A stretch of 64,000 bases of DNA. Origin: Deinococcales bacterium. GTDB taxonomy: Bacteria; Deinococcota; Deinococci; Deinococcales; JAAFIG01. Location: the NCBI GenBank assembly GCA_043778225.1, contig JAYWGM010000028.1, positions 1 to 64,000 of the forward strand, written 5' to 3'. Shown here piece by piece: positions 14,096 to 42,370 of the stretch (position 1 is its first letter; each line of letters opens with the position of its first letter). A program made the translations under genes and the position numbers. The notes beneath the pieces are model-generated. The model ran no database searches and was not told the DNA's origin. It saw only the letters and a list, made by a program, of their open reading frames with translations.

Positions 14096-14406
14096 AAATC
14101 TCGAGTCTCTAAAAGCACTCGAGTCAACAGGGTATCGCCTCCTTTTGTCTGCACCAGTGGATTTTGTAAACCTTTTGGGTGTCGAGTTACCTCCTTTCAC
14201 GTACTTTCTGAATTTAAGATTAAAGAAATAACCTGATTTTTACCTGACACGGTTTGCCTCGAGTCGCCAAAACCTGTACACTCGACTCACTTTGAAGATT
14301 TCCATGTGGCAACTTGATGCGATTCCGCCGCCAGCACCTTATTTTTGAAGGTGCAAGTCGTTTATTTATTTTTTCCAACTCGAATACTCGAGTCAAGGGG
14401 TGTCTT

Positions 14407-15771
14407 ATGGGTTTTATCAATTTAGTCACACATATTCCGGGCGAAAAGTCCAAACAACTCAATCAACGCCGCGCCAATGCGGTTTCCGGTGGTTTAGCCA
14501 TGGCAAATGGAATCGCCGTGGTATCTGCCCAAGGCAGCGTGGTTCAGGATGCTGATGGCAATACCTTGATTGACTTGGCAGGTGGCATTGGGGTGCTGGC
14601 GGTTGGGCATCGCCCAAAAAGTGTGACCGATGCCATTCATGCCCAAGTCGATAAATACCTGCATATGTGCAGCATCGTGGCAAATTATGAGCCATATGTT
14701 GAGGTTTGCGAAGCCCTCAACCGCTTAACGCCTGGCGATTTTGCCAAGAAAACGCTTTTGTCCAATGGCGGCGCGGAAGCGGTCGAGAACGCCGTTAAAT
14801 TGGCACGCAAGTTTACGGGCAGGGCTGGCGTGATTGTCTTTGAGGGCGCATACCACGGGCGCAGCAATTTAACCATGGCAATGACCAGCAAATGGGGCTT
14901 ATTCAAAAAAGGCTTTGGTCCGTTTGCCCCAGAGGTCTACCGTTTGCCACTGCCCAATATGTACCGCACACCAGTCGGAATCTCGAGCCAAGACTACTTG
15001 AATTGGGCTTGTAAAAACCTTGACGATGCCATGGTTAGCCACATTGACCCAAGTGCAGTGGCGTGTATTGTGATCGAGCCAGTCGTCGGTGAGGGTGGTT
15101 TTATTCCCGTCCCCAAGCAATTCTTAGAAAAAATCCGTGAAATCTGCACCCGAATTGGCGCGGTCATGATTGCCGACGAAATCCAAAGCGGTTCTGGGCG
15201 AACCGGTAAACTCTGGGCAATCGAACACTCGGGGGTTGTGCCAGATATGATTATCAGTGCCAAAAGTCTGGCGGCTGGACTGCCTTTAAGCGCCATCACC
15301 GGTCGAGCCGAAATCATGGACAGCCCCCACATTGGCGGGGTTGGCAGCACTTACGGCGGCAATCCATTGGCGTGTGTGGCGGCACTCGAGGCGCTAGAAT
15401 TATTACAAAGCAGCGATTTGCAAACTGGCGCGGCACACATCGAACAGACCGTGCGAACGATGTTTGAACCAATGATGCTCGAGTTACCCTGTGTTGGCGA
15501 TGTGCGCGGTATTGGCGGCATGATGGTCGTGGAATTCGTTAAAGACCAAATCAGCAAAGAACCGTGGACTGAACTTGTGCCAGATATTGCCAAGCGCTGT
15601 CTCGAGGGTGGTGTGGTGCTGTTGCGGGCGGGGCTGTACAGCAATTGCATTCGCTTTTTGCCACAACTCGACATTGAACCAGCCATGCTGCACGAAGCCC
15701 TGAGTGTCGTCCAAGGCGCAATTCGAACCGCTTATGCTGCCCAGAAACCCAAAGAACTTGTGGCTGCATAA
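14407..15771 (+). CDS. gabT: 4-aminobutyrate aminotransferase (class III PLP)
   Basis: DLAGGIG, GAEAVENAVK, YHGR, IEPVVGEGGF, ADEIQSG, AKSL, TYGGNP motifs. Confidence 0.88.
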   Translation: MGFINLVTHIPGEKSKQLNQRRANAVSGGLAMANGIAVVSAQGSVVQDADGNTLIDLAGGIGVLAVGHRPKSVTDAIHAQVDKYLHMCSIVANYEPYVEVCEALNRLTPGDFAKKTLLSNGGAEAVENAVKLARKFTGRAGVIVFEGAYHGRSNLTMAMTSKWGLFKKGFGPFAPEVYRLPLPNMYRTPVGISSQDYLNWACKNLDDAMVSHIDPSAVACIVIEPVVGEGGFIPVPKQFLEKIREICTRIGAVMIADEIQSGSGRTGKLWAIEHSGVVPDMIISAKSLAAGLPLSAITGRAEIMDSPHIGGVGSTYGGNPLACVAALEALELLQSSDLQTGAAHIEQTVRTMFEPMMLELPCVGDVRGIGGMMVVEFVKDQISKEPWTELVPDIAKRCLEGGVVLLRAGLYSNCIRFLPQLDIEPAMLHEALSVVQGAIRTAYAAQKPKELVAA

Positions 15772-19989: not shown

Positions 19990-21426
19990 ATGTATCAATC
20001 AGTTGCACGTCAAGCCCTTTTCGCTGGTGGTTGGCAGACACTCGAGAAAACTTTTCCTGTCATTAACCCATTCGATGGTAGCACCGTAGCCCAAATTGCC
20101 GACTGTGGCGAACTCGAAGCCAAAGAAGCCCTCGAGGCAGCCGTTACGGCATTCTCGAGCTTTAAGAATACCTTGGGGTTTGAGCGCAGTATCATCATGC
20201 AAAAATGGGCAGCCCTGATTCGTGCCAATGCCGAAGAAATCGCCAAAACCATGACCCTCGAAATGGGTAAGCCAATGCTCGAGTCTCGCGGCGAAAGTAT
20301 TTATTCTGCCACGGCAATCGAGTGGTACGCCGCCGAAGCCGAACGGATTGCTGGTGAGATTGTTCCAAGTCGCTTTGCCCAAAAACGGGCTTTTACCCGT
20401 CCTGAACCTGTGGGTGTGGTTTACGCCATCACCCCTTGGAATTTTCCTGCGGCGATGATTGCCCGTAAAGTTGCGCCCGCTTTAGCGGCTGGTTGCGTGG
20501 TGGTTCTTAAACCCGCCGAGCAGTCGCCGCTAACAGCCCTACTTTTGGCAAAGCTCTGGCTCGAGGCTGGAGCGCCAAAAGACACCTTCCAAGTGCTGCC
20601 CTGCCAAGACCCGATTAAGGTTTCTCGGGTTTTTATGACCGATGCTCGAGTTCGTAAAATTACCTTTACTGGTAGTACCGAAGTCGGCAAGCTGCTCTAT
20701 GCCCAAGCTGCACCAACCCTCAAACGAATGTCGCTCGAGTTGGGTGGTCATGCGCCATTTATTGTTTTTGATGATGCAGATGTGGTGGCAGCCGCCCTGA
20801 CGGTTTCTAATTCTAAATTTAGAAACGCAGGTCAGCAGTGTGTGGCAAGTAACCGTGTCTATGTTCACGAGAATCTGTCCTCGAGTTTTGAGGCAGCATT
20901 TGCCGCCCAAGCCAAGGGTTTTAAGCTCGGCAATCCGCTTGATGCCGACACCACGATTGGTCCGTTGGTGGATAAGGCAACCTTAGATAAAGTCCAAAGC
21001 CATGTGCAAGATGCCGTGGCAAAAGGCGCAAAAATTGTGACGGGCGGTCATGCGATTGGTGGACTTTTTTTTGAACCGACAATTTTATCTGGGGTCAACA
21101 CTTCGATGCAAATTCTGACCGAGGAAACCTTTGGTCCAGTTGCACCGCTTGTGCCGTTCTCGAGCGAAACCGATGCGATCACTTGGGCAAACAACACCGA
21201 ATACGGCTTGGCAGCTTATATTTGGACAAAGGACATCGGGCGGGCGTACCGAGTCGCCGAAAGTCTTGACTATGGAATTGTTGGAGTCAACGACGGCGTG
21301 CCAAGTGCCATGGCACCTCAAGCGCCATTTGGTGGCATGAAATACTCTGGTTTTGGACGCGAAGGTGGGCGTTGGGGTCTCGAGGCGTTTTTAGAACTCA
21401 AATACATCAGCATTACCCTGCCTTAG
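19990..21426 (+). CDS. gabD: NAD(P)-dependent succinate-semialdehyde dehydrogenase
   Basis: ITPWNFP, KPAEQ, FTGSTEVG, LELGGHAP, FRNAGQQCV, EETFGP, GREG motifs. Confidence 0.88.
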   Translation: MYQSVARQALFAGGWQTLEKTFPVINPFDGSTVAQIADCGELEAKEALEAAVTAFSSFKNTLGFERSIIMQKWAALIRANAEEIAKTMTLEMGKPMLESRGESIYSATAIEWYAAEAERIAGEIVPSRFAQKRAFTRPEPVGVVYAITPWNFPAAMIARKVAPALAAGCVVVLKPAEQSPLTALLLAKLWLEAGAPKDTFQVLPCQDPIKVSRVFMTDARVRKITFTGSTEVGKLLYAQAAPTLKRMSLELGGHAPFIVFDDADVVAAALTVSNSKFRNAGQQCVASNRVYVHENLSSSFEAAFAAQAKGFKLGNPLDADTTIGPLVDKATLDKVQSHVQDAVAKGAKIVTGGHAIGGLFFEPTILSGVNTSMQILTEETFGPVAPLVPFSSETDAITWANNTEYGLAAYIWTKDIGRAYRVAESLDYGIVGVNDGVPSAMAPQAPFGGMKYSGFGREGGRWGLEAFLELKYISITLP

Positions 21427-31350: not shown

Positions 31351-31527
31351 ATGAAAAAGTTCTTTGCATTGGCACTCGTTTCGGCAAGTTTAATCGCAGG
31401 TATGGTTTCTTGCGGCAGCACACTACGAGTATTTATAGGTCAAGAAGAAAGTTCAACTGCTGCGGTTATACCTTGGTTAAGTTTAATCAAAGATTTTCTT
31501 GCAAAAACCAATCATGGAATGGCGTAA
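31351..31527 (+). CDS. Unannotated 58-aa putative lipoprotein (possibly a truncated remnant)
   Basis: TAAGGAG RBS; MKKFFALALVSASLIAGMVSC signal and lipobox. Confidence 0.5.
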   Translation: MKKFFALALVSASLIAGMVSCGSTLRVFIGQEESSTAAVIPWLSLIKDFLAKTNHGMA

Positions 31528-31943
31528 ATCCCATCACCTCGAGCCTCGAGCTTAAAGGTCGGCAAAGGCTTGTTCGCAGGTCCTTGCTTAACTGCCCCAG
31601 TCTCGAGGTCAAACACACTTCCATGACACGGGCAACCTAGGTCTGTGCCAACTGGCGCACCAACCACACAACCAATGTGGGTACAAACTCGAGAACGGGC
31701 AATCAGATGCACTTCGCCAATGCTCAAACCATCTTTTTGTGGCTTAGCAACTCGAGCAATCACGGCGGGATTGCCACCAAGGTCAAGATTGAGACTGCTG
31801 CCGACCCTTAGAAAATCCTCGAGTGTTCCAACTTTCACGCCAGTTAGCGCAAGGCTTGCCCCTGGATTTTCGCGCACTGGCAGACATCCCGTTGCACCAA
31901 CAAGGCTTAGCGCAATCAGTGCATCCCGTCTCGAGATATTCAT
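31512..31943 (-). CDS. Small Tat-exported Rieske [2Fe-2S] lipoprotein
   Basis: SRRDAL twin-Arg, ATGC lipobox, CTHIGC / CPCHGSVF. Confidence 0.9.
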   Translation of the reverse strand: MNISRRDALIALSLVGATGCLPVRENPGASLALTGVKVGTLEDFLRVGSSLNLDLGGNPAVIARVAKPQKDGLSIGEVHLIARSRVCTHIGCVVGAPVGTDLGCPCHGSVFDLETGAVKQGPANKPLPTFKLEARGDGIYAIP

Positions 31944-32193
31944 CGCTACAGTATGACAGATGTTCTGGGTTTTTTCTAAGTTTTTTGAAAACAAAGCCAA
32001 TCCTTCTCAATTTTGGTGACCAATTACACATTTACCTAAGAATTGTAATCTTGTGCTGTCAACAATGGCGTTTGGGACAATTCTCTGGTTGTTGCATCGC
32101 TTTGTAATTCGTATGCTCTATGCAATCTACCGAATCACATGGTTGAGGTCGTCTACCCAGCATTGCGTTGGGGTTTCTCGAGGAGGAAGGCTG

Positions 32194-33645
32194 GTGAGTA
32201 TGAGTATGGTCGAATCTGTGCGTGACCGTTTATTTCCTGATACTCCAGATGCGTCGGCAAAGCTATGGCTTACGTCGGCTGTGGTCTGGGGCGTGCTGGG
32301 TATGACATTTGGTGTCTTGATGGCAATTTTGTTTGTCTTTCCAGAATTTACCAAGGGTGTGCCGTGGTTATCGTTTAGTCGGATTCGTCCGTCTCACGTC
32401 AATACCGTGGTCATGTCTTGGGTTTCGATGGCAAGCATCGGCTCAATGTTTTATATGCTGCCGCGCTTACTCAAAACTGGCTTAGTCAGTGAACGCCTTG
32501 GTACAGCCGTTGGTTGGTCTTGGAACGCCTTTGCGCTGTGTATCCCGCTCACACTCCTGAATGGAATGTCCGAAGGGCGTGAATGGGCAGAGTTGGTTTG
32601 GTGGATGGATTGGTGGATGCTGATTAACCTCGGTTTGGTTGGGTATCTGACCTTTGCAACCGTCGCCAACCGCAAAGAACAGCAGCTCTATGTTTCAGTC
32701 TGGTATTGGATGGGTTCGATGGTCGGCATGACGATGGTTTGGATTGTCGGCAACCGCACTTTTGTACCACTTGATGGCTTAAACGATGCCATTGCCAATT
32801 GGTTTTATGCCCACGATGTACTGGGGCTTTGGATTACCACCATGGGCATTGGCATTATTTACTATTTATTGCCAAAACTGACGGCTGGCAAAAATGGCGA
32901 ACCGGGCAACCCAGTTTTTAGCCATAAACTGTCTCTAATCGGTTTTTGGGGAAATTTTGCTTTCTACACAGGTATTGGCGCACATCACATCATCCAAGCA
33001 CCCGTGCCAGAATGGTTAAAAGCCTTTGCGATTGCCTCGAGTGTCCTGATGAGCATTCCGGTCTACTCTGCCAGTGCTAATTTCTTTTTGTCCACCCAAG
33101 GACGCTGGGAAAACTTGGCTTGGAATTTACCATTGCGCTTTGTGACTTTTGGTTGGATTATGTACGCCCTCTCGAGCTTCCAAGGCAGTTTACAGGCGGT
33201 ACGTAGCATCAATTGGTATCAGCACTTTACGGGCATTGTCAGCGCTCACGCTCATTTAGCCATGCTTGGCGGTTTTAGCGTCGTGCTTTTTGCCAGCATT
33301 TATTACTGTATTCCACGGCTTTATAAAGTCGAATGGTACTCCAAAAAACTTGTGGTGGTGCATTTTTGGACGTTCACCGTTTCGTTTGTGATGTTCTTTT
33401 TGGTCTGGACAACCATGGGCTTTGTACAAGCCACCAGTTGGGTCATGGGTATCAATGTGCAGCAAACTGTACCGTTCTTGCAGCCATTTACCTTTACCCG
33501 CATGATTGCTGCCTTAGCAATGATTTTCTCGGTTTATATTTTTGCTTATAACGTGCTGCAAACCGTGCGTTCTGCCAAACGCCAAGAGGCTACTTCTCGA
33601 GTCCTCATTCCTTCAGGCGTTGCTCCTGCTGCGGCGGACGATTAG
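32194..33645 (+). CDS. ccoN: C-family (cbb3-type) heme-copper oxidase subunit I
   Basis: RIRPSH, EGREWAE, WFYAH, FYTGIGAHH, AHAH metal-ligand motifs; AGGAGG RBS before GTG. Confidence 0.88.
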   Translation: MSMSMVESVRDRLFPDTPDASAKLWLTSAVVWGVLGMTFGVLMAILFVFPEFTKGVPWLSFSRIRPSHVNTVVMSWVSMASIGSMFYMLPRLLKTGLVSERLGTAVGWSWNAFALCIPLTLLNGMSEGREWAELVWWMDWWMLINLGLVGYLTFATVANRKEQQLYVSVWYWMGSMVGMTMVWIVGNRTFVPLDGLNDAIANWFYAHDVLGLWITTMGIGIIYYLLPKLTAGKNGEPGNPVFSHKLSLIGFWGNFAFYTGIGAHHIIQAPVPEWLKAFAIASSVLMSIPVYSASANFFLSTQGRWENLAWNLPLRFVTFGWIMYALSSFQGSLQAVRSINWYQHFTGIVSAHAHLAMLGGFSVVLFASIYYCIPRLYKVEWYSKKLVVVHFWTFTVSFVMFFLVWTTMGFVQATSWVMGINVQQTVPFLQPFTFTRMIAALAMIFSVYIFAYNVLQTVRSAKRQEATSRVLIPSGVAPAAADD

Positions 33646-33653
33646 GGGTTTTT

Positions 33654-34577
33654 ATGTTAAATGCCAAAAATGCAATTATTGGAATGATGTTTTTACTGCT
33701 CGTGACTGGTGTCACCAGCCTTGTGGTGGTTGTTCCAGCCGCCACTTTTAACCCAGAACCAGCCATTGGTTTACGCAATTACACCGAAGCCGAATTGCGT
33801 GGACGCGAAGTCTTTAAGCGCGAGAACTGCTATGTCTGCCATAGCCAATTTGTACGCTTTCAAGATGAGGGCATGGGCAACACCTCGCAAGCCGGCGATT
33901 TTGCCTACGACAATTCAAATTTATTGGGGACACTGCGAAACGGTCCAGACTTGTCTTATGAAGGTGGCTTGTACCCCGACGAATGGCACATCGGACACCT
34001 CAAAGCACCGCGCTCTTATTTGCCGGGCAGCTATATGCCAAGTTACAGCTACCTCAATAACAACGACATCAAGGACTTGGTGGCTTACATTCAAAGCCTT
34101 GGCACACGCAACACCCGAGCTTGGGACACCAAAGATGTCAACATCCCCGAAAAGTACCGCAACCTCGAGTCTCCGCTTGGTCAAACGACCGCCAACATCG
34201 GGGCTGGGCGAGGTATTTATAACCAAAACTGCTCAGCTTGCCACGGCTTTGAGGGTCGGGCGGACGTGCCACTAGCAAAAATGTTTTATCCAAAACCAGC
34301 CGCCAATTTCCGTTTGCCGCGCTATAAAGACTTTACCGACGGTCATTGGTTTAACAAGGTGGCTCGAGGCGTACCCGGTACAAGAATGCCGCGCTGGGAC
34401 CAAATCCTTAATTCCGAGCAAATGTGGTACGTCGTGACCTACTTAAAGTCCTTAGCCCAAGACCAAGACCTTGTGCCAAAAGCTGGGCGCGAGAAATACT
34501 ACGACAAGAGCGTACTACAACCCGGCACAATTAAGAAAAAGTACGAAGGCGCTCCAAAAGCTGGCGGTGGTCACTAG
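33654..34577 (+). CDS. ccoO: cbb3 subunit II fused to a second c-type cytochrome domain
   Basis: CYVCHSQFVR, GTLRNGPDL, P...PGSYMP; second heme site CSACH with MP axial Met. Confidence 0.88.
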   Translation: MLNAKNAIIGMMFLLLVTGVTSLVVVVPAATFNPEPAIGLRNYTEAELRGREVFKRENCYVCHSQFVRFQDEGMGNTSQAGDFAYDNSNLLGTLRNGPDLSYEGGLYPDEWHIGHLKAPRSYLPGSYMPSYSYLNNNDIKDLVAYIQSLGTRNTRAWDTKDVNIPEKYRNLESPLGQTTANIGAGRGIYNQNCSACHGFEGRADVPLAKMFYPKPAANFRLPRYKDFTDGHWFNKVARGVPGTRMPRWDQILNSEQMWYVVTYLKSLAQDQDLVPKAGREKYYDKSVLQPGTIKKKYEGAPKAGGGH

Positions 34578-34847
34578 ATGCTTTTGCGCTCAGCTGTTTT
34601 CTTGGCTTTCTCGAGTTTAGCCTTGGCAGACCATGTTCCCGGTGTTGGCTTAAATTACAGTGGTACATGGGTGGTTCTGATTGCGGTTGGCGTGATTTTC
34701 TCGTTGCTGATTTTATCGTTTCTCTGGGCATTTTTGGATGGACAATTTCACAATTCCGAACAGGTAAAATTTGCAGTGGCTGCGCCTGACGACAGTTTTA
34801 TTCCCAGCATTGAACGTCCAAAAGAGGTGAGTTATGGCTCAAAATAA
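34578..34847 (+). CDS. ccoS: CcoS-like cbb3 assembly protein with N-terminal extension
   Basis: TM helix followed by FLWAFLDGQF. Confidence 0.6.
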   Translation: MLLRSAVFLAFSSLALADHVPGVGLNYSGTWVVLIAVGVIFSLLILSFLWAFLDGQFHNSEQVKFAVAAPDDSFIPSIERPKEVSYGSK

Positions 34848-34989
34848 CGATGACCAGCACGACGACCACACCCACGAAATCGCTGGGGTGCGGGTTGGCG
34901 AAAAAAATGTACCAACTTCGGTGATTGCTGTTTTTATCTTTGTTGCATTTATCGCCCTGATTTCTTGGATTGCACCACAGGGGTTTTAA
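34834..34989 (+). CDS. Unannotated 51-aa single-TM protein resembling the CcoP N-terminal segment
   Basis: GAGG RBS; MAQNNDDQHDDHTHEIAGVRVGEKNVP + TM; TAA overlaps the next ATG. Confidence 0.65.
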   Translation: MAQNNDDQHDDHTHEIAGVRVGEKNVPTSVIAVFIFVAFIALISWIAPQGF

Positions 34990-35993
34990 TGAAAAAACTT
35001 TTATCCCTATTGCTTTTCTCGAGCCTTGCCGCCTGTAGTCTGCCGAGCGATGCCAATAATCCAGCCAAAGAAGCTGCCAAAAAAGGTGTTTTATATATTC
35101 GTGAAGGCGAAAAGCCACTCGAGTTAAAACCCGAAGAAGGCGCATACGACTGGAAATACCCCAAGTACCCAGAAGATTACAAAGTTGACTTGAGCAACCG
35201 CGACCAAAACAACGCCACCTATATGTCTGGGCGCGAAATCACTTATCGTGCCAAAACCGACGGGCAACACAAAATGGACACCGCTCTTGCCGAAGCTGGT
35301 TCGTATGCCGGTCCATGGCTCGAGGGCGAGGACACTTTACTTTTGCCAGTTGCCAATCCCAATATCATCCTTGGTGATGCTTTGATTAAAACCTTGGGGG
35401 CAGAAATTACCAACGAGATGATGCCAGCGCTCGAGGAAAGCCCATTCCAAGCCTTTTTGAAATTGCGTGAACTTGGTAAAGATGCAGAAGGTAAGCACCG
35501 CACCGTCACGATTTCCTTAACTGGTGTGACCAATCCCTCGAGCGGACAAGCCGAAGTTGCCGAATACGATGTCCAACTTGATAAAGAGGCGCTATGGAGC
35601 ATTACCTATGCGCTCTATCGCAAAATTCAGCCCGATTTTAGTTTGCGAATTGGCACAAAAGACAATCCTAAGGCGAAAGTAGATGGGGCTTTAATTTATG
35701 GCAACTGCAATATGTGCCACGGCTCAGACGGTTGGGGTTTAGGAAAAAGTGGTCATAAGTTGCAGCCACATCCAGCCAATTTCCATGAGCCACGGCGTTT
35801 ATTTAATCGCTCGGATACAAAACTGCGTGAAGTTCTCAAGCATGGTGTCTATGGAAGCGCCATGCCACCATGGAATGATAAGCTCTCGGAAGCCGAGATT
35901 AACCATGTGGTGGCATACATCCGTTCTTTTTCGTACACCCTCGAGCCACCAGTTTTGAATGTCAAGCCACGTTTTAAGGGAGGTCAGCCATGA
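34989..35993 (+). CDS. Lipoprotein c-type cytochrome
   Basis: LAAC lipobox, CNMCH, SAMPPW. Confidence 0.85.
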   Translation: MKKLLSLLLFSSLAACSLPSDANNPAKEAAKKGVLYIREGEKPLELKPEEGAYDWKYPKYPEDYKVDLSNRDQNNATYMSGREITYRAKTDGQHKMDTALAEAGSYAGPWLEGEDTLLLPVANPNIILGDALIKTLGAEITNEMMPALEESPFQAFLKLRELGKDAEGKHRTVTISLTGVTNPSSGQAEVAEYDVQLDKEALWSITYALYRKIQPDFSLRIGTKDNPKAKVDGALIYGNCNMCHGSDGWGLGKSGHKLQPHPANFHEPRRLFNRSDTKLREVLKHGVYGSAMPPWNDKLSEAEINHVVAYIRSFSYTLEPPVLNVKPRFKGGQP

Positions 35994-36039
35994 ACCTGAT
36001 ACTCAAGGCAAAATACCCGATTCTCAAGGGAGGTCAGCC

Positions 36040-36693
36040 ATGATTGACCGCAGAAGCATCATCAAGGGCATCACCATTCTGCCCTTATTGGCGGTGGCTG
36101 GTGGAATCGGTACGGCGCTTTTGTCGTACTTAAAACCAACTTGGAAACCTCTTGCATTGCCAGTCACCGAAAAACCACTCAATAAAGACAAAGTAATTGG
36201 TACACTCGAGGAATTTGATAAGGATTATGCCTTTAAGGAGTTTATTTTTACGCAAATCACGGTCGAGTACACGGCTCGAGGACGGGCTGCGACCGATATT
36301 TTGGGCTATGCGGTGCGTGTCCCGAACGACAAATTAGCCGCCGCCGATGTCGGTGTTGGTCCGAGCGGCTTGCGGCGTGGTTACGGCGAAACAGATTACA
36401 ACGGTCAGAAGTACAGCATCGTGGTGGTCTCGAGAATTTGCGCGCACTTGGGTTGTATTTTTGAGTATCACCTCCCAGCCGAGGTTTGTAGCGGCTTTAA
36501 TTATTGTGGTGGTTCAACCCCGATGTTTTCTTGTCCATGCCACTTATCGGTCTATGACCCAGCCCAAAAACAAGATGTGGCGGGGGCTGGCACATTGCCG
36601 GGCAAGGTTGTTTCCGGTCCTGCACCACGCACCCCGTTCCCATTTGATTTTGAGATTAAAGGCAATGAAATTATTGTCAAGAGCTACGGTTAA
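36040..36693 (+). CDS. Rieske iron-sulfur subunit of a Rieske/cytochrome b complex
   Basis: DRRSII Tat anchor, CAHLGC, CPCHLSVY, GPAPR. Confidence 0.9.
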   Translation: MIDRRSIIKGITILPLLAVAGGIGTALLSYLKPTWKPLALPVTEKPLNKDKVIGTLEEFDKDYAFKEFIFTQITVEYTARGRAATDILGYAVRVPNDKLAAADVGVGPSGLRRGYGETDYNGQKYSIVVVSRICAHLGCIFEYHLPAEVCSGFNYCGGSTPMFSCPCHLSVYDPAQKQDVAGAGTLPGKVVSGPAPRTPFPFDFEIKGNEIIVKSYG

Positions 36694-36704
36694 GGAGGAA
36701 TACT

Positions 36705-38015
36705 ATGGCAGCCCCAGCAATTCCCGCAAAAAAAGCTGTTCCCAATATCGGGCAGAAAGTTGCCCAGTGGTGGACAAAAAGCGCTCGCAACTTAGATTTA
36801 TTCGATGAAAACCAAACCGATAAAGTCTTAAACGACCCATGGTATATGCTCGGCGGAATGGCGTTGCTGTTTTGGTATATCACCATTGCAACTGGTACAG
36901 TGCTGATGTTTTATTATGTGCCAGACACGTATCAGGCATGGCGCAGTGTGCGTGGCATTTTTGAAGGCGAACAGGGATTTTGGATTGCCTTGATTCGCAA
37001 TATGCACAAATACGGCGCGGATGCACTGATTATTGCCCTGACGATGCGAATTTATCGAATGTACTTTCGTGGTGAATTTAAGAATTATAATCAGCTTTCC
37101 TATATCGTCACGATTATTGGCTTGTTGTTAGCGATGTTCAGTGGTTTAACGGGTTACCTACTGATTTGGAATCAACGCGCCCTTTGGGCAACCAAAGTCT
37201 TTGCGACTTTCCCAACCTTTATTGACGATTTCCATAACATCCCAACCATTAAAGTCTTTATGCCTCTGGTGGCTGGTCTGCTCGAGAACACCCTCTCGAG
37301 CCTCAAAATTGGCGCTTTAACCGCCAACTTTATGTTGGCTGGACAAAGCATTGGACCTGCCACCCTGACCCGTTTTTACAGCGCTCACTTTATGCTCTCG
37401 ATTTTAGCCATTTTAGCCATCGAAGCCTATTTTGCCCGTAAAGGACGCGGTGGAAAAATCGGCGAAGCGGCGGCTGGCGGCGGCGCTGGACGTTTTAAGC
37501 GGATTAACTTGCCGTGGTTTGCCGTGGTCTTTTGCTTTGTGGTGCTGGTTGTGGTTTCGATTTGGGTACCTGTCGATACGGGCAGCCCCGCCAACTACAA
37601 CGTCACACCAAATCCGATTTTGTCCGACTGGTACTTTTTAGGCTTATACCAAATGATGAAATGGTGGCAACCTGCCGTGGCGACCTTGCAAACAATCCTT
37701 CTACCGTTGGTGGCTTTTGTGGTGGTCTTTTTGGATTACAGCCCCGAACGCAACCCATGGAAACGCCCATTCTGGACAATGGTTGGTATTTATGGCTTGG
37801 TATCGTGGTTGGCATTTAGCATCCTGATTATTCTGAACATTGCCGACATTAAACGCGACCCGCCTTACGTCTATTTGGTGAGCATGATTATGCTTGGCGC
37901 TGGGGCAATTTGGCACTGGGTATTTATGGCGGGAGAACGCAAGAAGCGTCTTAAACTCGAGGCTGAAAAAGCCGCCAAAGCCGCAATTGCGGCTGTTCCG
38001 CAAGCTGCCGATTAG
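36705..38015 (+). CDS. Cytochrome b (unsplit) retaining only heme bL ligands
   Basis: IRNMH101, TRFYSAH228, Qo-like SDWYF; the +14 positions are R115 and Y242. Confidence 0.85.
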   Translation: MAAPAIPAKKAVPNIGQKVAQWWTKSARNLDLFDENQTDKVLNDPWYMLGGMALLFWYITIATGTVLMFYYVPDTYQAWRSVRGIFEGEQGFWIALIRNMHKYGADALIIALTMRIYRMYFRGEFKNYNQLSYIVTIIGLLLAMFSGLTGYLLIWNQRALWATKVFATFPTFIDDFHNIPTIKVFMPLVAGLLENTLSSLKIGALTANFMLAGQSIGPATLTRFYSAHFMLSILAILAIEAYFARKGRGGKIGEAAAGGGAGRFKRINLPWFAVVFCFVVLVVVSIWVPVDTGSPANYNVTPNPILSDWYFLGLYQMMKWWQPAVATLQTILLPLVAFVVVFLDYSPERNPWKRPFWTMVGIYGLVSWLAFSILIILNIADIKRDPPYVYLVSMIMLGAGAIWHWVFMAGERKKRLKLEAEKAAKAAIAAVPQAAD

Positions 38016-38025
38016 GGGTGTAATC

Positions 38026-38328
38026 ATGAAAGGAAGCACTTGGTTATTTACGATCGCCACATTTGTGGGCGGCATCCTTGTGTTCTCGAGTGGTTATGCC
38101 GAAGTCCTGCGTTACCTCAATAGCCCGACTTGGACGGGTCTAGCAATGATTGCTTTTTGGTTGGCACTGCTGATTTTCTTTGTGGTCACACTTGGGTTTA
38201 TTATGTACGCTGTCGATCGCAAAGCGGGTAATGTTAAAGTTAAAATCGCATTTTTTGAACGGCTACTTGGTCATGATAAAGATGCCAAATTGCCAGAGTC
38301 TCGAGAAAGTAACAAGGAGAATTCATGA
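38026..38328 (+). CDS. Small 2-TM membrane protein of the respiratory operon
   Basis: Two hydrophobic helices; RBS GGGG; co-oriented and overlapping the next gene. Confidence 0.65.
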   Translation: MKGSTWLFTIATFVGGILVFSSGYAEVLRYLNSPTWTGLAMIAFWLALLIFFVVTLGFIMYAVDRKAGNVKVKIAFFERLLGHDKDAKLPESRESNKENS

Positions 38329-38693
38329 AAACAATCATCGCCATTCTGATGGTGCTAGGAGCGCTGGGCTTGACACCCCTAACCATCGGTGCGTTTGCCC
38401 ACGCCAACCCCGACTTTGGGGCGGTGGACAGCACTTTGGTGACCGAAAACCCGTACATTGTGCGCGAAGATGGAGCGCCAAGTATCCCCGCTTTTGCGGT
38501 TAGTTTGGTTAAGTTTATCCGCGACACCGAAGGTGCAATTTCTGGAGCGCTGCTGCCAAACCTTAAATCTTTCCCGTTTGAACGTGGCTTTGCCTACATG
38601 GGACTGACGGTTTTGCTGACCGCCATTGCTTCGGCACTGCTGGCGGATACACGCAGTCAAACGCTGGTCAAGCCCGGCAGGAAGGTGGCATAA
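38325..38693 (+). CDS. Small membrane protein of the respiratory operon
   Basis: AAGGAG RBS; N- and C-terminal TM segments. Confidence 0.65.
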   Translation: MKTIIAILMVLGALGLTPLTIGAFAHANPDFGAVDSTLVTENPYIVREDGAPSIPAFAVSLVKFIRDTEGAISGALLPNLKSFPFERGFAYMGLTVLLTAIASALLADTRSQTLVKPGRKVA

Positions 38694-38694
38694 G

Positions 38695-39882
38695 ATGGCA
38701 GGTTATAGCGCAGACCAAGCACCAACCTCGAGAGACAAAGGCTTTGATGCTGGTTTAGACAGCCTGCATAAGGGTATTGTCTCAATCGATAAAGCCATCA
38801 ACAAGGTTATCCCCGAAGAATTTAATCCATTTTATTACCTTGGTGGCATCACTAATGTCTTGTGGGTTTTACTTGTGCCATCGGGTATTTTTTTGTGGTT
38901 TTACTATAAGCCGACCACCACCGAAGCCTTCTCGAGTGTCGATTACTTAACTGTTCAGGTCTTTTTTGGTGGCGTGATTCGCGGTATTCACCGTTATGCT
39001 GGCAATGGCATGATTTTACTGGCAATTCTGCATATGTTGCGTAATTTTTTTACTGACCGCTACCGAGGTTTCCGCGATATTCCTTGGGTTTCTGGGGTTA
39101 TTTTATTGTTCTTGACTGGTTTTATCGGCTTGACTGGCTACTTATTGGTCTGGGACCAACGCGCCTTGGTGATTACGGAAGCACTGGTGCAGATTTTACG
39201 CAGCTTTGACTTGGTGATTGCTGGCTTTGGTACTTGGTTGGCACAAGGCTTAATCGGCGGCGATGAACCCAATAACCTGACGCTGGCACGAATGTTATTT
39301 TTGCACGTCGGTCCTGCTGTGTTGGTCTTTTTCTTCTTGTGGGTGCATTACTTGCGCTTACACCGACCAAAAATCTGGCCTCCAGCTTTTGTGACCCTTT
39401 TGACGATTGGCGCAGTATTGTTGGCGGCTGGTCTGTTGCCACTCGAGAAAACTTTGCCCGCTACACAACCGATTGCGGCAGGACAAGCTGCCATTGTTTA
39501 CGATATTTTTTATCTGTTGCCCGTTTTGGCGCTCTCGAGCATCAGCGCTCCTTGGATTTTGGCGATTTTATTGGTGCTGTTTGGCGTGATGTTTATTTTG
39601 CCATGGCTACCCGCCAAAAAGCATCGCTATGTCAATGTGGCAACCGTCACCCCAGAAAACTGCACTGGCTGCCAACTGTGCGCCATTGACTGCCCATTTG
39701 ACGCAATCATCATGGTGCCTGGTGCAAACCCGAATCCACGCTATACAGAATTGGCTGTGGTCAACGATGATAAATGTGCTGAATGTGGTATCTGTGTTGG
39801 GGCTTGCCCATTCCATGCAATCAATCTCCCGCTTATGGACGAATACGCGATACGCGATAAGGTGGTGGCGTTACTTAAATGA
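38695..39882 (+). CDS. Di-heme cytochrome b fused to a 2x[4Fe-4S] ferredoxin domain
   Basis: H99/H113 and H204/H218 pairs; CTGCQLCAIDCP and CAECGICVGACP. Confidence 0.88.
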   Translation: MAGYSADQAPTSRDKGFDAGLDSLHKGIVSIDKAINKVIPEEFNPFYYLGGITNVLWVLLVPSGIFLWFYYKPTTTEAFSSVDYLTVQVFFGGVIRGIHRYAGNGMILLAILHMLRNFFTDRYRGFRDIPWVSGVILLFLTGFIGLTGYLLVWDQRALVITEALVQILRSFDLVIAGFGTWLAQGLIGGDEPNNLTLARMLFLHVGPAVLVFFFLWVHYLRLHRPKIWPPAFVTLLTIGAVLLAAGLLPLEKTLPATQPIAAGQAAIVYDIFYLLPVLALSSISAPWILAILLVLFGVMFILPWLPAKKHRYVNVATVTPENCTGCQLCAIDCPFDAIIMVPGANPNPRYTELAVVNDDKCAECGICVGACPFHAINLPLMDEYAIRDKVVALLK

Positions 39883-40367
39883 ATCTAGCATCCGATACAA
39901 CCCAACCCAATGTGCTTTCCCACAATGGCAAACCTAAGTTGCTTGGTTTTGTCTGTGAATGGAGCTTAGGACGAACTGACCACATCCATGAGGACGGCAC
40001 AGTCAAAGGCATGGAACACATCAAAACCCTGAAAATTCCGTGCAGTGGCTTTGTCAAAACCGAATGGGTGACAGTGGCTTTTGAAAACGGCGCTCAAGGT
40101 GTTTTTGTGCTTGGTTGCCCACTGGGCGATTGCCACTTTAACGAAGGTAATTTTATTATCAATGGGCGGCTCGAGCAACACACCGGACGGATGGTCAATC
40201 GTAAAATTATTGATGATTCTGGGCGGGTTGCCGAATTGTACTTGGGTGTGACTGGCAACAATGATTTCTTTGGTCAACTCGAGGACTTTACTAAGTACAT
40301 TGCTGCCATGCCACCGCTTGTCGTGGCAGCTAAAAAACCACGGGCGGCAGCTGCCAAAAAGGAGTAA
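39879..40367 (+). CDS. MvhD/FlpD-like [2Fe-2S] protein
   Basis: GFVCEW, IPCSG, GCPLGDCHFNEGN cysteine pattern of the MvhD family. Confidence 0.85.
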   Translation: MNLASDTTQPNVLSHNGKPKLLGFVCEWSLGRTDHIHEDGTVKGMEHIKTLKIPCSGFVKTEWVTVAFENGAQGVFVLGCPLGDCHFNEGNFIINGRLEQHTGRMVNRKIIDDSGRVAELYLGVTGNNDFFGQLEDFTKYIAAMPPLVVAAKKPRAAAAKKE

Positions 40368-40658: not shown

Positions 40659-41465
40659 ATGGCACGCTCAATTGCACAACCAGAACCGCTCGAGCCATCC
40701 AACGCGATGGGCAGTTCGCACATGAGCCAAATTGAAGTGGTCTCGATTAGTTCGTATATTCGACTCGAGAAAGGGCGATGGAAAGGAAAACCGGTTTTGG
40801 TTAAACGCCTAAAAACCTCGGTACTGAATCATCACGAGATTCTTGAGCGCTTTGAACGCGAAGCTGACGTTCTCGAGCGCCTTGACCACCCCAATATCCC
40901 AGCCCTGATTCACCGCGAAAAAGGGTTGCTGATGCGCCAATATATCGAGGGCAACACGCTCTATCATTATCTGAGTCAAGCCACCATAGACTTGAAATCC
41001 ACGCTACATATTGCCAGAGGTTTACTCTCGGCGCTGGTGCATTCTCATGTCCGCGAGATTTTGCATCTCGATGTCAAACCTGCCAATATCCTGCTCAGTG
41101 CTGACCGACGGGTGCATTTGATTGATTTTGGCTGTGCCAAAGACCTGACTTTGGACAGCATTACCCACCAAGAAGCCCGACTTGGCACACCGCATTACAT
41201 GGCACCAGAACAATTTAAGGGCATCCGCGATGACCAACGCAGCGATATTTACAGTGTTGGGGCAGTGATGTACGAATGCCTGATGGGGCAGCCACCGCAC
41301 AAAGACCCTTTTGCTTGGTTATCTGGGCGTGGGGCATTGCCCAAAGCCATGCCCACCAATAAACCGCTTGCCACCATAATCCTCAAAGCCATTCAGCGTA
41401 ACCCAGACAACCGTTATGAAGAAGCGCTCGATATGCTCGAGGCGCTAGAAGCCATCGAGGACTGA
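40659..41465 (+). CDS. Hanks-type Ser/Thr protein kinase
   Basis: RFERE, HLDVKPAN, DFG, GTPHYMAPE, SDIYSVG motifs. Confidence 0.9.
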   Translation: MARSIAQPEPLEPSNAMGSSHMSQIEVVSISSYIRLEKGRWKGKPVLVKRLKTSVLNHHEILERFEREADVLERLDHPNIPALIHREKGLLMRQYIEGNTLYHYLSQATIDLKSTLHIARGLLSALVHSHVREILHLDVKPANILLSADRRVHLIDFGCAKDLTLDSITHQEARLGTPHYMAPEQFKGIRDDQRSDIYSVGAVMYECLMGQPPHKDPFAWLSGRGALPKAMPTNKPLATIILKAIQRNPDNRYEEALDMLEALEAIED

Positions 41466-42370
41466 TGAAACGACTTGCACTTTGTGTCACTTTACTGGCT
41501 GGTATTGCCGTTTCGCAGCCCACCTCTCCCCTACCAAGCGGCGCAGTGCTTATTTCGAGCAAAAGTATATTGGGAATTCTCGAGCAAGATTTATGGTACA
41601 AAAGTGGCACTCTAAAAATTCGCGGCAGATTATTTTTGCCCAGTGGCGCATCTCGAGTGGCTGGCGTTGTCTATAACCACGGTGGAATTAGTGGCTTATC
41701 AAATCTAGCCGCTACACGCTGCCGCGAATTGGCTATGGCTGGCTTTGCAGTTTTTGCCTCGAGTTACCGTGGTGAAGATGGTTCGGATGGTCGGATTGAA
41801 GTTGCCAAGGGCGAAGTGGATGATGTCTTGGCGGGTTACAACTGGTTCAAAACCCATCCTCGAGTTGACCCAAAACGGATTGCCCAATTTGGCACAAGTC
41901 ATGGCGCATTAATTGGCTTACTTGGCAGTGCCAGAGACTCGAGTTTTCGCAGTTTGGTCTTTGCGTATGGTGTGGCGGACATTAGCGCTTGGTATGAGCA
42001 TTTGGTACGCACCAACCAACTGAGCAACGACCAACTGACCAAAGATATTTATGGCAAAGGACCGACCGATAAACCGCAAAGTTTTGCGATTCGCATGGGC
42101 TTGACCGCCGTGCCAAAATTATCTGCCTCCATGCCAGTGTTGATTGTTCAGGGCGGCAAGGATGTAGTTGTGCCACCCGAACAAGCCAATGCCTTACAAG
42201 CTGCACTCGAGACACACCGAAAACCAAGTATCTTAAATATATATCCAAACAGCGAACATGGCTTTGTGATTACCCAAGAAGCGGCAGCTAAAAAAAGTAA
42301 AATCGCGGGACTCGAGGCAAAGCAAGCATGGACGGATATTAAAAAGTTTTTGCTCGAGACGACAAGATAA
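41465..42370 (+). CDS. Exported S9-like alpha/beta hydrolase
   Basis: Signal peptide, HGG, GTSHG nucleophile, D.VVP, HGF. Confidence 0.8.
   Translation: MKRLALCVTLLAGIAVSQPTSPLPSGAVLISSKSILGILEQDLWYKSGTLKIRGRLFLPSGASRVAGVVYNHGGISGLSNLAATRCRELAMAGFAVFASSYRGEDGSDGRIEVAKGEVDDVLAGYNWFKTHPRVDPKRIAQFGTSHGALIGLLGSARDSSFRSLVFAYGVADISAWYEHLVRTNQLSNDQLTKDIYGKGPTDKPQSFAIRMGLTAVPKLSASMPVLIVQGGKDVVVPPEQANALQAALETHRKPSILNIYPNSEHGFVITQEAAAKKSKIAGLEAKQAWTDIKKFLLETTR

Follow-up and report, generated by a model that had tools for sequence, protein, structure and literature searches.

Two unlike cytochromes b and a cytoplasmic iron–sulfur tail in a Deinococcales operon: a possible natural complex III with obligatory electron transfer between dimer halves

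According to the accessible text of a review, each known cytochrome bc1 or b6f complex pairs two copies of a single cytochrome b, and every copy has four haem-binding histidines (PMC7908018). Here we describe a tightly packed row of genes that departs from this plan. It occupies positions 32053-40367 on the + strand of a 64,000-nucleotide stretch from a Deinococcales bacterium (assembly GCA_043778225.1, contig JAYWGM010000028.1; this whole stretch is called the window below) and runs from oxidase genes through a cytochrome c, a Rieske protein and two cytochromes b, b-1 and b-2, to an MvhD-like protein. With canonical bc1/b6f complexes the module shares its Rieske protein, its c-type cytochrome and a cytochrome b fold that keeps the ligands of the outer haem bL, as well as a motif of the PEWY type (SDWY in b-1). 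Unlike them, it has two cytochrome b paralogues, of which b-1 lacks the ligands of the inner haem bH and b-2 lacks helices G and H and carries iron–sulfur (Fe-S) clusters.

The best matches of known structure are cytochrome b6 and subunit IV. In the b6f type the cytochrome b is split into these two chains, and a cysteine covalently binds haem cn, whereas b-1 is unsplit with eight helices and b-2 is a single chain of helices A-F. The FYCLGG of b6 reads WYMLGG in b-1 and FYYLGG in b-2, which puts M and Y, respectively, in place of the haem-cn cysteine. Judged by its sequences, the complex is b6-like and belongs to the Rieske/cytochrome b superfamily, but it is not a b6f complex.

Asymmetric dimers are known as engineered cross-inactivated b-b fusions of bc1, in which, in the accessible parts of the reports, the Qo (quinol-oxidation) site of one half is served by the negative (N) side of the other half through bL-to-bL transfer (PMC4330944, PMC4152375). 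Those fusions are mutated laboratory constructs; the present module would be natural, ancient and widespread, with an added Fe-S chain. Two anammox complexes, Kuste4569-4574 and Kustd1480-1485, are closer in another respect, as their Rieske/cytochrome b core is proposed, in the accessible text, to be wired to a cytoplasmic Fe-S chain and to feed a low-potential acceptor by quinol bifurcation (PMC12954380). In the same text they are modelled as homodimers in which both b haems are present, accompanied by multihaem c proteins and by Fe-S/FAD subunits of an NAD(P) reductase that are proteins in their own right. The module described here has no flavoprotein, its ferredoxin is fused to cytochrome b, its terminal protein is MvhD-like and one of its cytochromes b is without bH.

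The Melainabacterial “complex III/IV” operon likewise places petB/petC-like genes beside a type C oxygen reductase (PMC6349859, accessible part). It is very probably the same gene cluster: Melainabacteria-named homologues of b-1 exist, and metagenome loci of the Melainabacteria type hold the full module. That paper, as far as its accessible text goes, annotates cytochrome b6 and Rieske only, with no mention of two cytochromes b, missing histidines, a ferredoxin fusion or MvhD. We found no description of a natural core of two cytochromes b, of the missing bH histidines or of the ferredoxin/MvhD fusion in open-access papers and bioRxiv, subscription journals being outside the search. Within the same scope, the literature on “heterodimeric cytochrome b” concerns cytochrome bd, NADPH oxidase b558 or engineered fusions, and no paper combines “SDWY” with “cytochrome b”.

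Cytochrome b-1 (36705-38015, + strand, 436 amino acids; Pfam Cytochrome_B and Cytochrom_B_C) retains, by alignment, the ligands of bL and none for bH. Aligned with cytochrome b6 chains (phmmer), H101 stands opposite the first histidine of helix B, R115 opposite the second and H228 opposite the first histidine of helix D, and the helix-C W..G of b6 is Y..T. When the profiles of b-1 and b-2 are aligned with each other (probability 100%, 265 columns), H101 pairs with H99, R115 with H113, H228 with H204 and Y242 with H218; D308 of SDWY falls opposite D270 of YDIFY in b-2. A preliminary description of the locus had read H101/H228 and SDWY as kept, R115 and Y242 as replacements of the bH ligands and YIVT as a change of the helix-C WxxG. 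The alignments to b6 and to b-2 agree on the first two points, and the b6 alignment bears out the third. The full set of four histidines for bL and bH, as found across the bc1/b6f superfamily, is present in b-2 and absent from b-1, which does carry a Qo motif of the PEWY type.

These features are not peculiar to one genome. For residue counts, open reading frames (ORFs) of b-1 and b-2 shorter than 330 amino acids and of MvhD shorter than 100 were dropped, and the window protein was included. All 141 b-1 proteins have H101, H228 and LSDWYF. At position 115, 131 proteins have R and 10 have K; position 242 is Y in 102, F in 32, L in 6 and W in 1, never His; the bH histidine pair occurs in 0/141. 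This pattern is far beyond what chance would give. Database homologues of 41-46% identity named Melainabacteria, Vampirovibrionales, Fimbriimonadaceae and Armatimonadetes show the same replacements. Elsewhere a single exception was seen, a database protein (P0047) that combines His in the 242 column with R at 115. Decay restricted to one genome, which the preliminary description had named among the findings that would overturn its reading, is excluded by losses shared among 141 proteins, and a pseudogene is ruled out by this conservation together with the equal evolutionary rates of b-1 and b-2. With F or L at position 242 in 38/141 proteins, and R or K at position 115, b-1 is very unlikely to hold a second haem by other ligands.

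The Qo face of b-1 is strongly conserved, with an invariant run from T301 to L312 in 47 sequences. On the N side, F33, D34, E35, R118, K126, E240 and R266 are invariant in the same 47. An AlphaFold2 model from a 47-row alignment has eight long helices and a mean per-residue confidence (pLDDT) of 80.8. The acidic N-terminal motif FDE (within residues 31-35) and charged cytoplasmic-side residues are thus kept in b-1 despite the loss of bH; one possibility is that the invariant N-side residues form a docking surface for the Fe-S module. Many b-1 ORFs of the Melainabacteria type (L102-L159) are 590-670 amino acids long, with a long, poorly conserved C-terminal extension and extra hydrophobic stretches.

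Cytochrome b-2 (38695-39882, + strand) is b6-like, with haem histidines H99, H113, H204 and H218, and ends in a 2x[4Fe-4S] ferredoxin domain. Its ORF can be read from TTG 38626; ATG 38695 is the likely start, because homologues of about 395 amino acids cover 94% of the longer ORF. The domain consists of two CxxCxxCxxxCP motifs, and Pfam Fer4, Fer4_7 and other families match it above cut-off. All 129 b-2 proteins have the four histidines and D270; of the eight ferredoxin cysteines, seven are found in 129/129 and one in 128/129. The motif at the PEWY position is variable except for the Asp (PLDVFF, VYDIFY, PVDWFY and others). The sequences indicate a protein with a relaxed Qo motif, both haems and helices A-F only. 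The AlphaFold2 model (47-row alignment) has six transmembrane helices, A-F, which exceed pLDDT 90, as do helices cd and ef. In Foldseek, about 300 of its columns align with bc1 cytochrome b chains, and the first four of its helices with b6. Helix F is followed by a basic stretch and then by the ferredoxin domain. Because helices A-F and the basic stretch precede it, the ferredoxin domain, and with it MvhD, would lie on the cytoplasmic side, by topology homology and the positive-inside rule.

The MvhD/FlpD-like gene (39879-40367, + strand) overlaps the stop of b-2 by 4 bp. Its product matches PF02662 at 73 bits (cut-off 22.3), has no hydrophobic segment and is predicted to be cytoplasmic with one [2Fe-2S] cluster. 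It aligns with the MvhD chain of known structure 5odc_D (E 3.3e-15), with C26, C55, C80 and C85 opposite cysteines, the likeness it shares with MvhD of Mvh-Hdr. In 128 MvhD-like proteins, C26, C80 and C85 are found in 128/128 and C55 in 127/128, the remaining one being an unreadable X. On the HdrA2 model, the ferredoxin domain aligns with positions 571-640 and MvhD with the next stretch, 644-771, under cut-off, and the two thus mirror the order of that protein. Unlike Mvh-Hdr and HdrA2, the module has a membrane cytochrome b upstream, and no hydrogenase or HdrA was found in window or genome.

Natural fusions connect the two proteins further. A group of 33 longer b-2 relatives (P0244-P0276, 693-726 amino acids) contains the full b-2-ferredoxin part, and in 22/33 a region matching MvhD follows on the same polypeptide; Pfam FlpD was found in 4/6 of those scanned. 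This fusion evidence suggests that MvhD sits on b-2, near the membrane. Behind that region the chain continues with a hydrophobic helix and ends in a domain of about 130 amino acids without family and, as read by eye, with two conserved cysteines. One of the fused proteins is named Chloroflexota.

Several claims of the preliminary description bear on b-2 and its neighbour. The four histidines and YDIFY are confirmed by translation and by alignment to b-1, the 2x[4Fe-4S] terminus by motifs and Pfam, and the overlap with an MvhD-like gene by coordinates and PF02662. The complementary losses hold in homologues, with no bH pair among 141 b-1 proteins and four histidines throughout b-2. A scan of the 53 ORFs of the window gave no HdrA or hydrogenase gene, again as described.

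We assembled 159 related loci, 79 from species-representative genomes (b-2 profile) and 80 from metagenomes (b-1 profile of the Melainabacteria type); their ORFs were called mechanically and scanned with the window proteins. A locus was taken to have room with at least 500 nt downstream for MvhD, at least 2500 nt upstream for b-1 or at least 2300 nt downstream for b-2. The block Rieske, b-1, small membrane ORFs, b-2-ferredoxin and MvhD recurs wherever the contig reaches. Its carriers are Deinococcales metagenome-assembled genomes (MAGs), CSP1-3/Sysuimicrobiota, Armatimonadota-labelled MAGs and metagenome contigs of the Melainabacteria type. The nearest relatives are uncultured “Deinococcales bacterium” MAGs (74-95% b-2 identity); the other genome loci come from Candidatus Sysuimicrobiota genera and from MAGs labelled Armatimonadota, “Bacillati bacterium ANGP1” and “Bacillota bacterium”. 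The module is not a one-genome curiosity: relatives are encoded by at least 144 matches to species-representative genomes and at least 527 stretches of metagenome.

Synteny is strict. MvhD directly follows b-2 in 71/71 genome loci and 50/51 metagenome loci with room, the sole other case (L091) having a short, weak b-2 match. With room, b-1 lies upstream of b-2 in 57/57 genome loci and b-2 downstream of b-1 in 51/51 metagenome loci, and the two are never apart across these 108; Rieske is present in 52/52 genome and 54/54 metagenome loci that have room. The module usually adjoins cbb3-type oxidase genes. CcoN is upstream in 31/33 metagenome loci with room and was found in 15/40 genome loci; several CSP1-3 loci have it downstream of MvhD instead. 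The distance matrices of b-1 and b-2 (47 paired sequences) correlate at r = 0.965, a value reached in 0/2000 permutations, and identities between groups are 41-43% for b-1 and 38-43% for b-2. Because rates and between-group identities match, b-1 is under the same constraint as b-2. The matrix correlation, computed from sequences, shows co-inheritance and not contact.

In the window's genome (4.03 Mb, 89% complete), b-1 and b-2 are the only PF00033/Cytochrome_B matches and the MvhD-like gene is the only FlpD match. When 120 further Deinococcota genomes, which belong to four other families (G001-G120), were scanned with the b-2 profile, the best matches listed scored at most 123 bits, to the cytochrome b part only, against 561 bits for the window's own b-2 gene. 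The listed best matches from these genomes carry an ordinary cytochrome b, and no b-2-ferredoxin fusion is among them. As these matches are weak and confined to the cytochrome b part, the module is foreign to the sampled rest of the phylum. Since the window's lineage has no ordinary cytochrome b and other Deinococcota carry one, the comparison suggests that a horizontally acquired operon replaced the phylum's usual complex III there.

The Rieske [2Fe-2S] subunit (35959-36693, +) has a twin-arginine-like N-terminus, one membrane helix (hydrophobic segment 32-58) and, in translation, the cluster-binding boxes CAHLGC and CPCH of the bc1/b6f superfamily. Its profile scores fall under curated cut-offs (Pfam E 0.008; TIGR01416 E 1e-6, 28.7 bits vs 97.4), which marks it as a divergent member. 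The gene before it (34965-35993, +) encodes a monohaem cytochrome c, membrane-anchored or a lipoprotein, with a C-terminal Pfam Cytochrome_CBB3/Cytochrom_C match; it is the likely acceptor of the Rieske electron, and a gene at this position recurs across all three locus groups. Farther upstream are a CcoN-like subunit I of a divergent cbb3-type (C-family) haem-copper oxidase (32053-33645, +; Pfam COX1 227 bits; NCBIfam ccoN 247 bits, under the cut-off of 583) and a CcoO (FixO) fused to a c-type cytochrome domain (33654-34577, +; Pfam FixO and Cytochrom_C/Cytochrome_CBB3, NCBIfam PRK14486-like).

We propose that the row from Rieske through MvhD specifies a single Rieske/cytochrome b complex with an obligate b-1:b-2 heterodimer, and not a homodimer, as its membrane core, a reading to which we give a little less than an even chance. 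From these genes we infer the heterodimer, the bL-to-bL transfer, the haem-to-cluster contact, the direction of flow and a cytoplasmic partner. That the proteins form one machine is supported by strict synteny, equal evolutionary rates, the lack of another genomic cytochrome b and the natural b-2-ferredoxin-MvhD fusions. A homodimer of b-1 would leave its bL a dead end, because the genome has no other PF00033 gene.

In the proposed heterodimer, menaquinol would be oxidised at the Qo site of b-1. One electron would pass through Rieske and cytochrome c to the cbb3-type oxidase, and the other would move from bL of b-1 across the dimer interface to bL of b-2 and on to the only bH, that of b-2. The transfer between bL haems is feasible because, in the accessible parts of the reports and of a review, engineered cross-inactivated bc1 dimers work through this very step (PMC4330944, PMC4152375, PMC7908018). 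At bH of b-2 the path would reach a junction. A quinone site of the Qi type is expected to persist there, since this is the only complex III, lies in an oxidase operon and would otherwise need a high-flux acceptor that is not encoded nearby, and the Q cycle would then be obligatorily cross-dimer. The same bH would also exchange electrons with the three-cluster Fe-S chain, which would act as a cytoplasmic port. In the preliminary description the cytoplasmic centres took over “instead of a normal Qi site”, which we regard as the less likely half of its reading.

As to the port, we lean very slightly to input from a low-potential cytoplasmic donor over output. MvhD in Hdr systems feeds electrons in, and typical [4Fe-4S] potentials lie below that of bH; the lean rests on these two points and on the HdrA2-like order of ferredoxin and MvhD. 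The anammox precedent, as far as the accessible text of PMC12954380 goes, favours exit.

Several observations weigh against the proposed heterodimer and its port. Synteny and co-divergence are expected of any operon and are no sign that b-1 and b-2 touch. A complex prediction for b-1 residues 20-420, b-2 residues 20-395 and three haems (47-row alignment per protein) scored 0.44, 0.44 and 0.48 against 0.28 for one control with an unrelated protein, which we count neither for nor against the heterodimer; cytochrome b homodimers of known structure could in any case have propped up a pass. Since D270 is invariant, b-2 may retain a working quinol site on the positive (P) side, which would weaken the picture of complementary halves. 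The ferredoxin domain is modelled poorly (pLDDT 40-60). In fused relatives of the P0252 type, the MvhD-like stretch gave no Pfam or phmmer match and, read by eye, seems to have lost its cysteines, so the [2Fe-2S] cluster would be dispensable in at least one branch. Partners are also wanting. At 89% completeness the genome has no [NiFe]-hydrogenase large subunit (PF00374), and its HdrA matches are short, generic hits to the HdrA2 model outside the locus; the association with Mvh hydrogenase or HdrA that goes with MvhD/FlpD is seen neither in the window nor in the genome. When 1420 ORFs within 5 kb downstream of MvhD were clustered across related loci, no conserved redox gene emerged in any lineage. 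A FAD/NAD(P)-binding Fe-S subunit was found neither in the window operon nor among these conserved downstream families. NuoF, two genes of the NuoD type and two proteins with CCG domains are present in the genome, but nothing links them to the module.

The architecture can be read in other ways. In an exit-only version, which follows the main reading of the preliminary description, quinol bifurcation would have no working Qi site, and all low-potential electrons would leave through bH, the two [4Fe-4S] clusters and MvhD to a cytoplasmic acceptor such as ferredoxin, a disulfide or, via a further partner, NAD(P)+, so that a low-potential reductant would be made at the expense of the oxidase branch. 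Ligand pattern, synteny and b-2 topology fit this equally well, one half of the haem and quinone machinery on the N side is gone, and a like function is proposed, in the accessible text, for the two anammox complexes with cytoplasmic Fe-S chains and NAD(P) reductase (PMC12954380). The module is, however, the sole cytochrome b system found in an aerobe's genome and stands in an oxidase operon; a high-flux acceptor would therefore be required for every second respiratory electron, yet no flavoprotein or other acceptor gene is conserved beside the module in the three groups and no HdrA-like protein was found in the genome. Transfer from a bH of the menaquinol type to clusters of the ferredoxin type is moreover uphill and would need unusual potentials. 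Taken together, we find an exit-only chain doubtful.

The two cytochromes b could instead belong to separate enzymes encoded side by side. One would be a single-haem quinol:cytochrome c oxidoreductase, built from a homodimer of b-1 together with Rieske and cytochrome c, and the other an independent b-2-ferredoxin/MvhD complex linking the quinone pool to cytoplasmic Fe-S centres. Qmo/Hdr-type systems, which combine a dihaem cytochrome b with Fe-S modules, offer an analogue for the latter. Since b-2 is always acidic at the PEWY position and keeps its two haems, it could by itself react with quinol, and fused b-2-ferredoxin-MvhD proteins do occur in other lineages. This arrangement is nevertheless improbable: the bL haems of a b-1 homodimer would lead nowhere, yet H101 and H228 are universal; b-1 and b-2 occur together in every locus with room; and no canonical cytochrome b is left in the genome for the ordinary job. 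Still a shade less probable is an ordinary cross-dimer Q cycle with the ferredoxin/MvhD tail off the main path, as a structural cap, an assembly element or an N-side redox sensor. Such a role would suit the 11/33 longer relatives without an MvhD match after the ferredoxin domain, the apparent loss (by eye) of four cysteines in the P0252 stretch and the lack of a partner encoded nearby. Set against it is the near-complete retention of the ferredoxin and MvhD cysteines; as they are kept across groups that share only about 40% identity, theirs is the pattern of working clusters.

Two small ORFs between b-1 and b-2 add to the genes listed in the preliminary description. The 100-residue sm100 (38026-38328, +; starting at the ATG after the b-1 stop) has two hydrophobic segments read as membrane helices; its homologues are weak (22-34 bits outside the Deinococcales group) and occupy the same position in many loci. 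The 122-residue sm122 (38325-38693, +) has one N-terminal and one C-terminal hydrophobic segment and is recognisable in Deinococcales loci only. Neither gave a family match in the NCBIfam-type profile scan of window ORFs. Among the oxidase genes, an 89-residue ORF with one hydrophobic segment, a single membrane helix (34578-34847, +), is possibly a small oxidase subunit; it had no family match in the Pfam scan and is weakly conserved across related loci.

Downstream neighbours of the module are lineage-specific. In the CSP1-3/Armatimonadota group (L017-L079) they include polyprenyl synthetase, cupredoxin-like and RadC-like genes, polyprenyl synthetase following the module in 51 loci and a small cupredoxin-like lipoprotein in 22; several of these loci have cbb3-type oxidase genes after MvhD and not before Rieske. 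In the Deinococcales group they are a Ser/Thr kinase and a hydrolase, which in the window take up 40659-42370 (+) as a Ser/Thr protein kinase and an alpha/beta hydrolase (S9/DLH-like); the pair is kept downstream in Deinococcales loci only. Divergent from the oxidase gene, a second small Rieske-domain gene (31512-32000, − strand, 162 amino acids; Pfam Rieske E 2.6e-10) has an RR-containing N-terminus and a Cys resembling a lipobox, and occurs among related loci only in the three nearest Deinococcales loci (L003-L005). Genes resembling gamma-aminobutyrate transaminase and succinate-semialdehyde dehydrogenase, at 14314-15771 and 19990-21426 (+), lie near sugar-type ATP-binding cassette transporter genes and are unrelated to the module.

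The broadest form of the proposal is that the module is an obligately asymmetric natural complex III, found in several phyla, in which bL-to-bL transfer is the only low-potential route and the single bH is coupled through ferredoxin and MvhD to a soluble low-potential carrier. We put this forward tentatively, the chances being against it. Whether electron transfer between the halves of bc1/b6f plays a physiological role is a long-standing open question, and engineered asymmetric mutants have been the only means of approaching it. In a natural complex with one half devoid of the inner haem, such transfer would be obligatory, and the question could be put to a direct test. The Fe-S tail suggests that the quinone pool is linked in a new way to low-potential redox carriers of the cytoplasm. 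If the proposal is true, one enzyme would join the menaquinone pool, cytochrome c and oxygen, and cytoplasmic chemistry at the level of ferredoxin, by quinol-based bifurcation or its reverse, and would parallel, in respiration, the link from ferredoxin to b6f that is discussed for cyclic electron flow. The module also occurs in a non-photosynthetic sister lineage of Cyanobacteria, and in aerobic Melainabacteria it is apparently the “complex III” that has gone unexamined; as such it bears on the evolution of complexes of the b6f type and of aerobic respiration near the cyanobacterial root.

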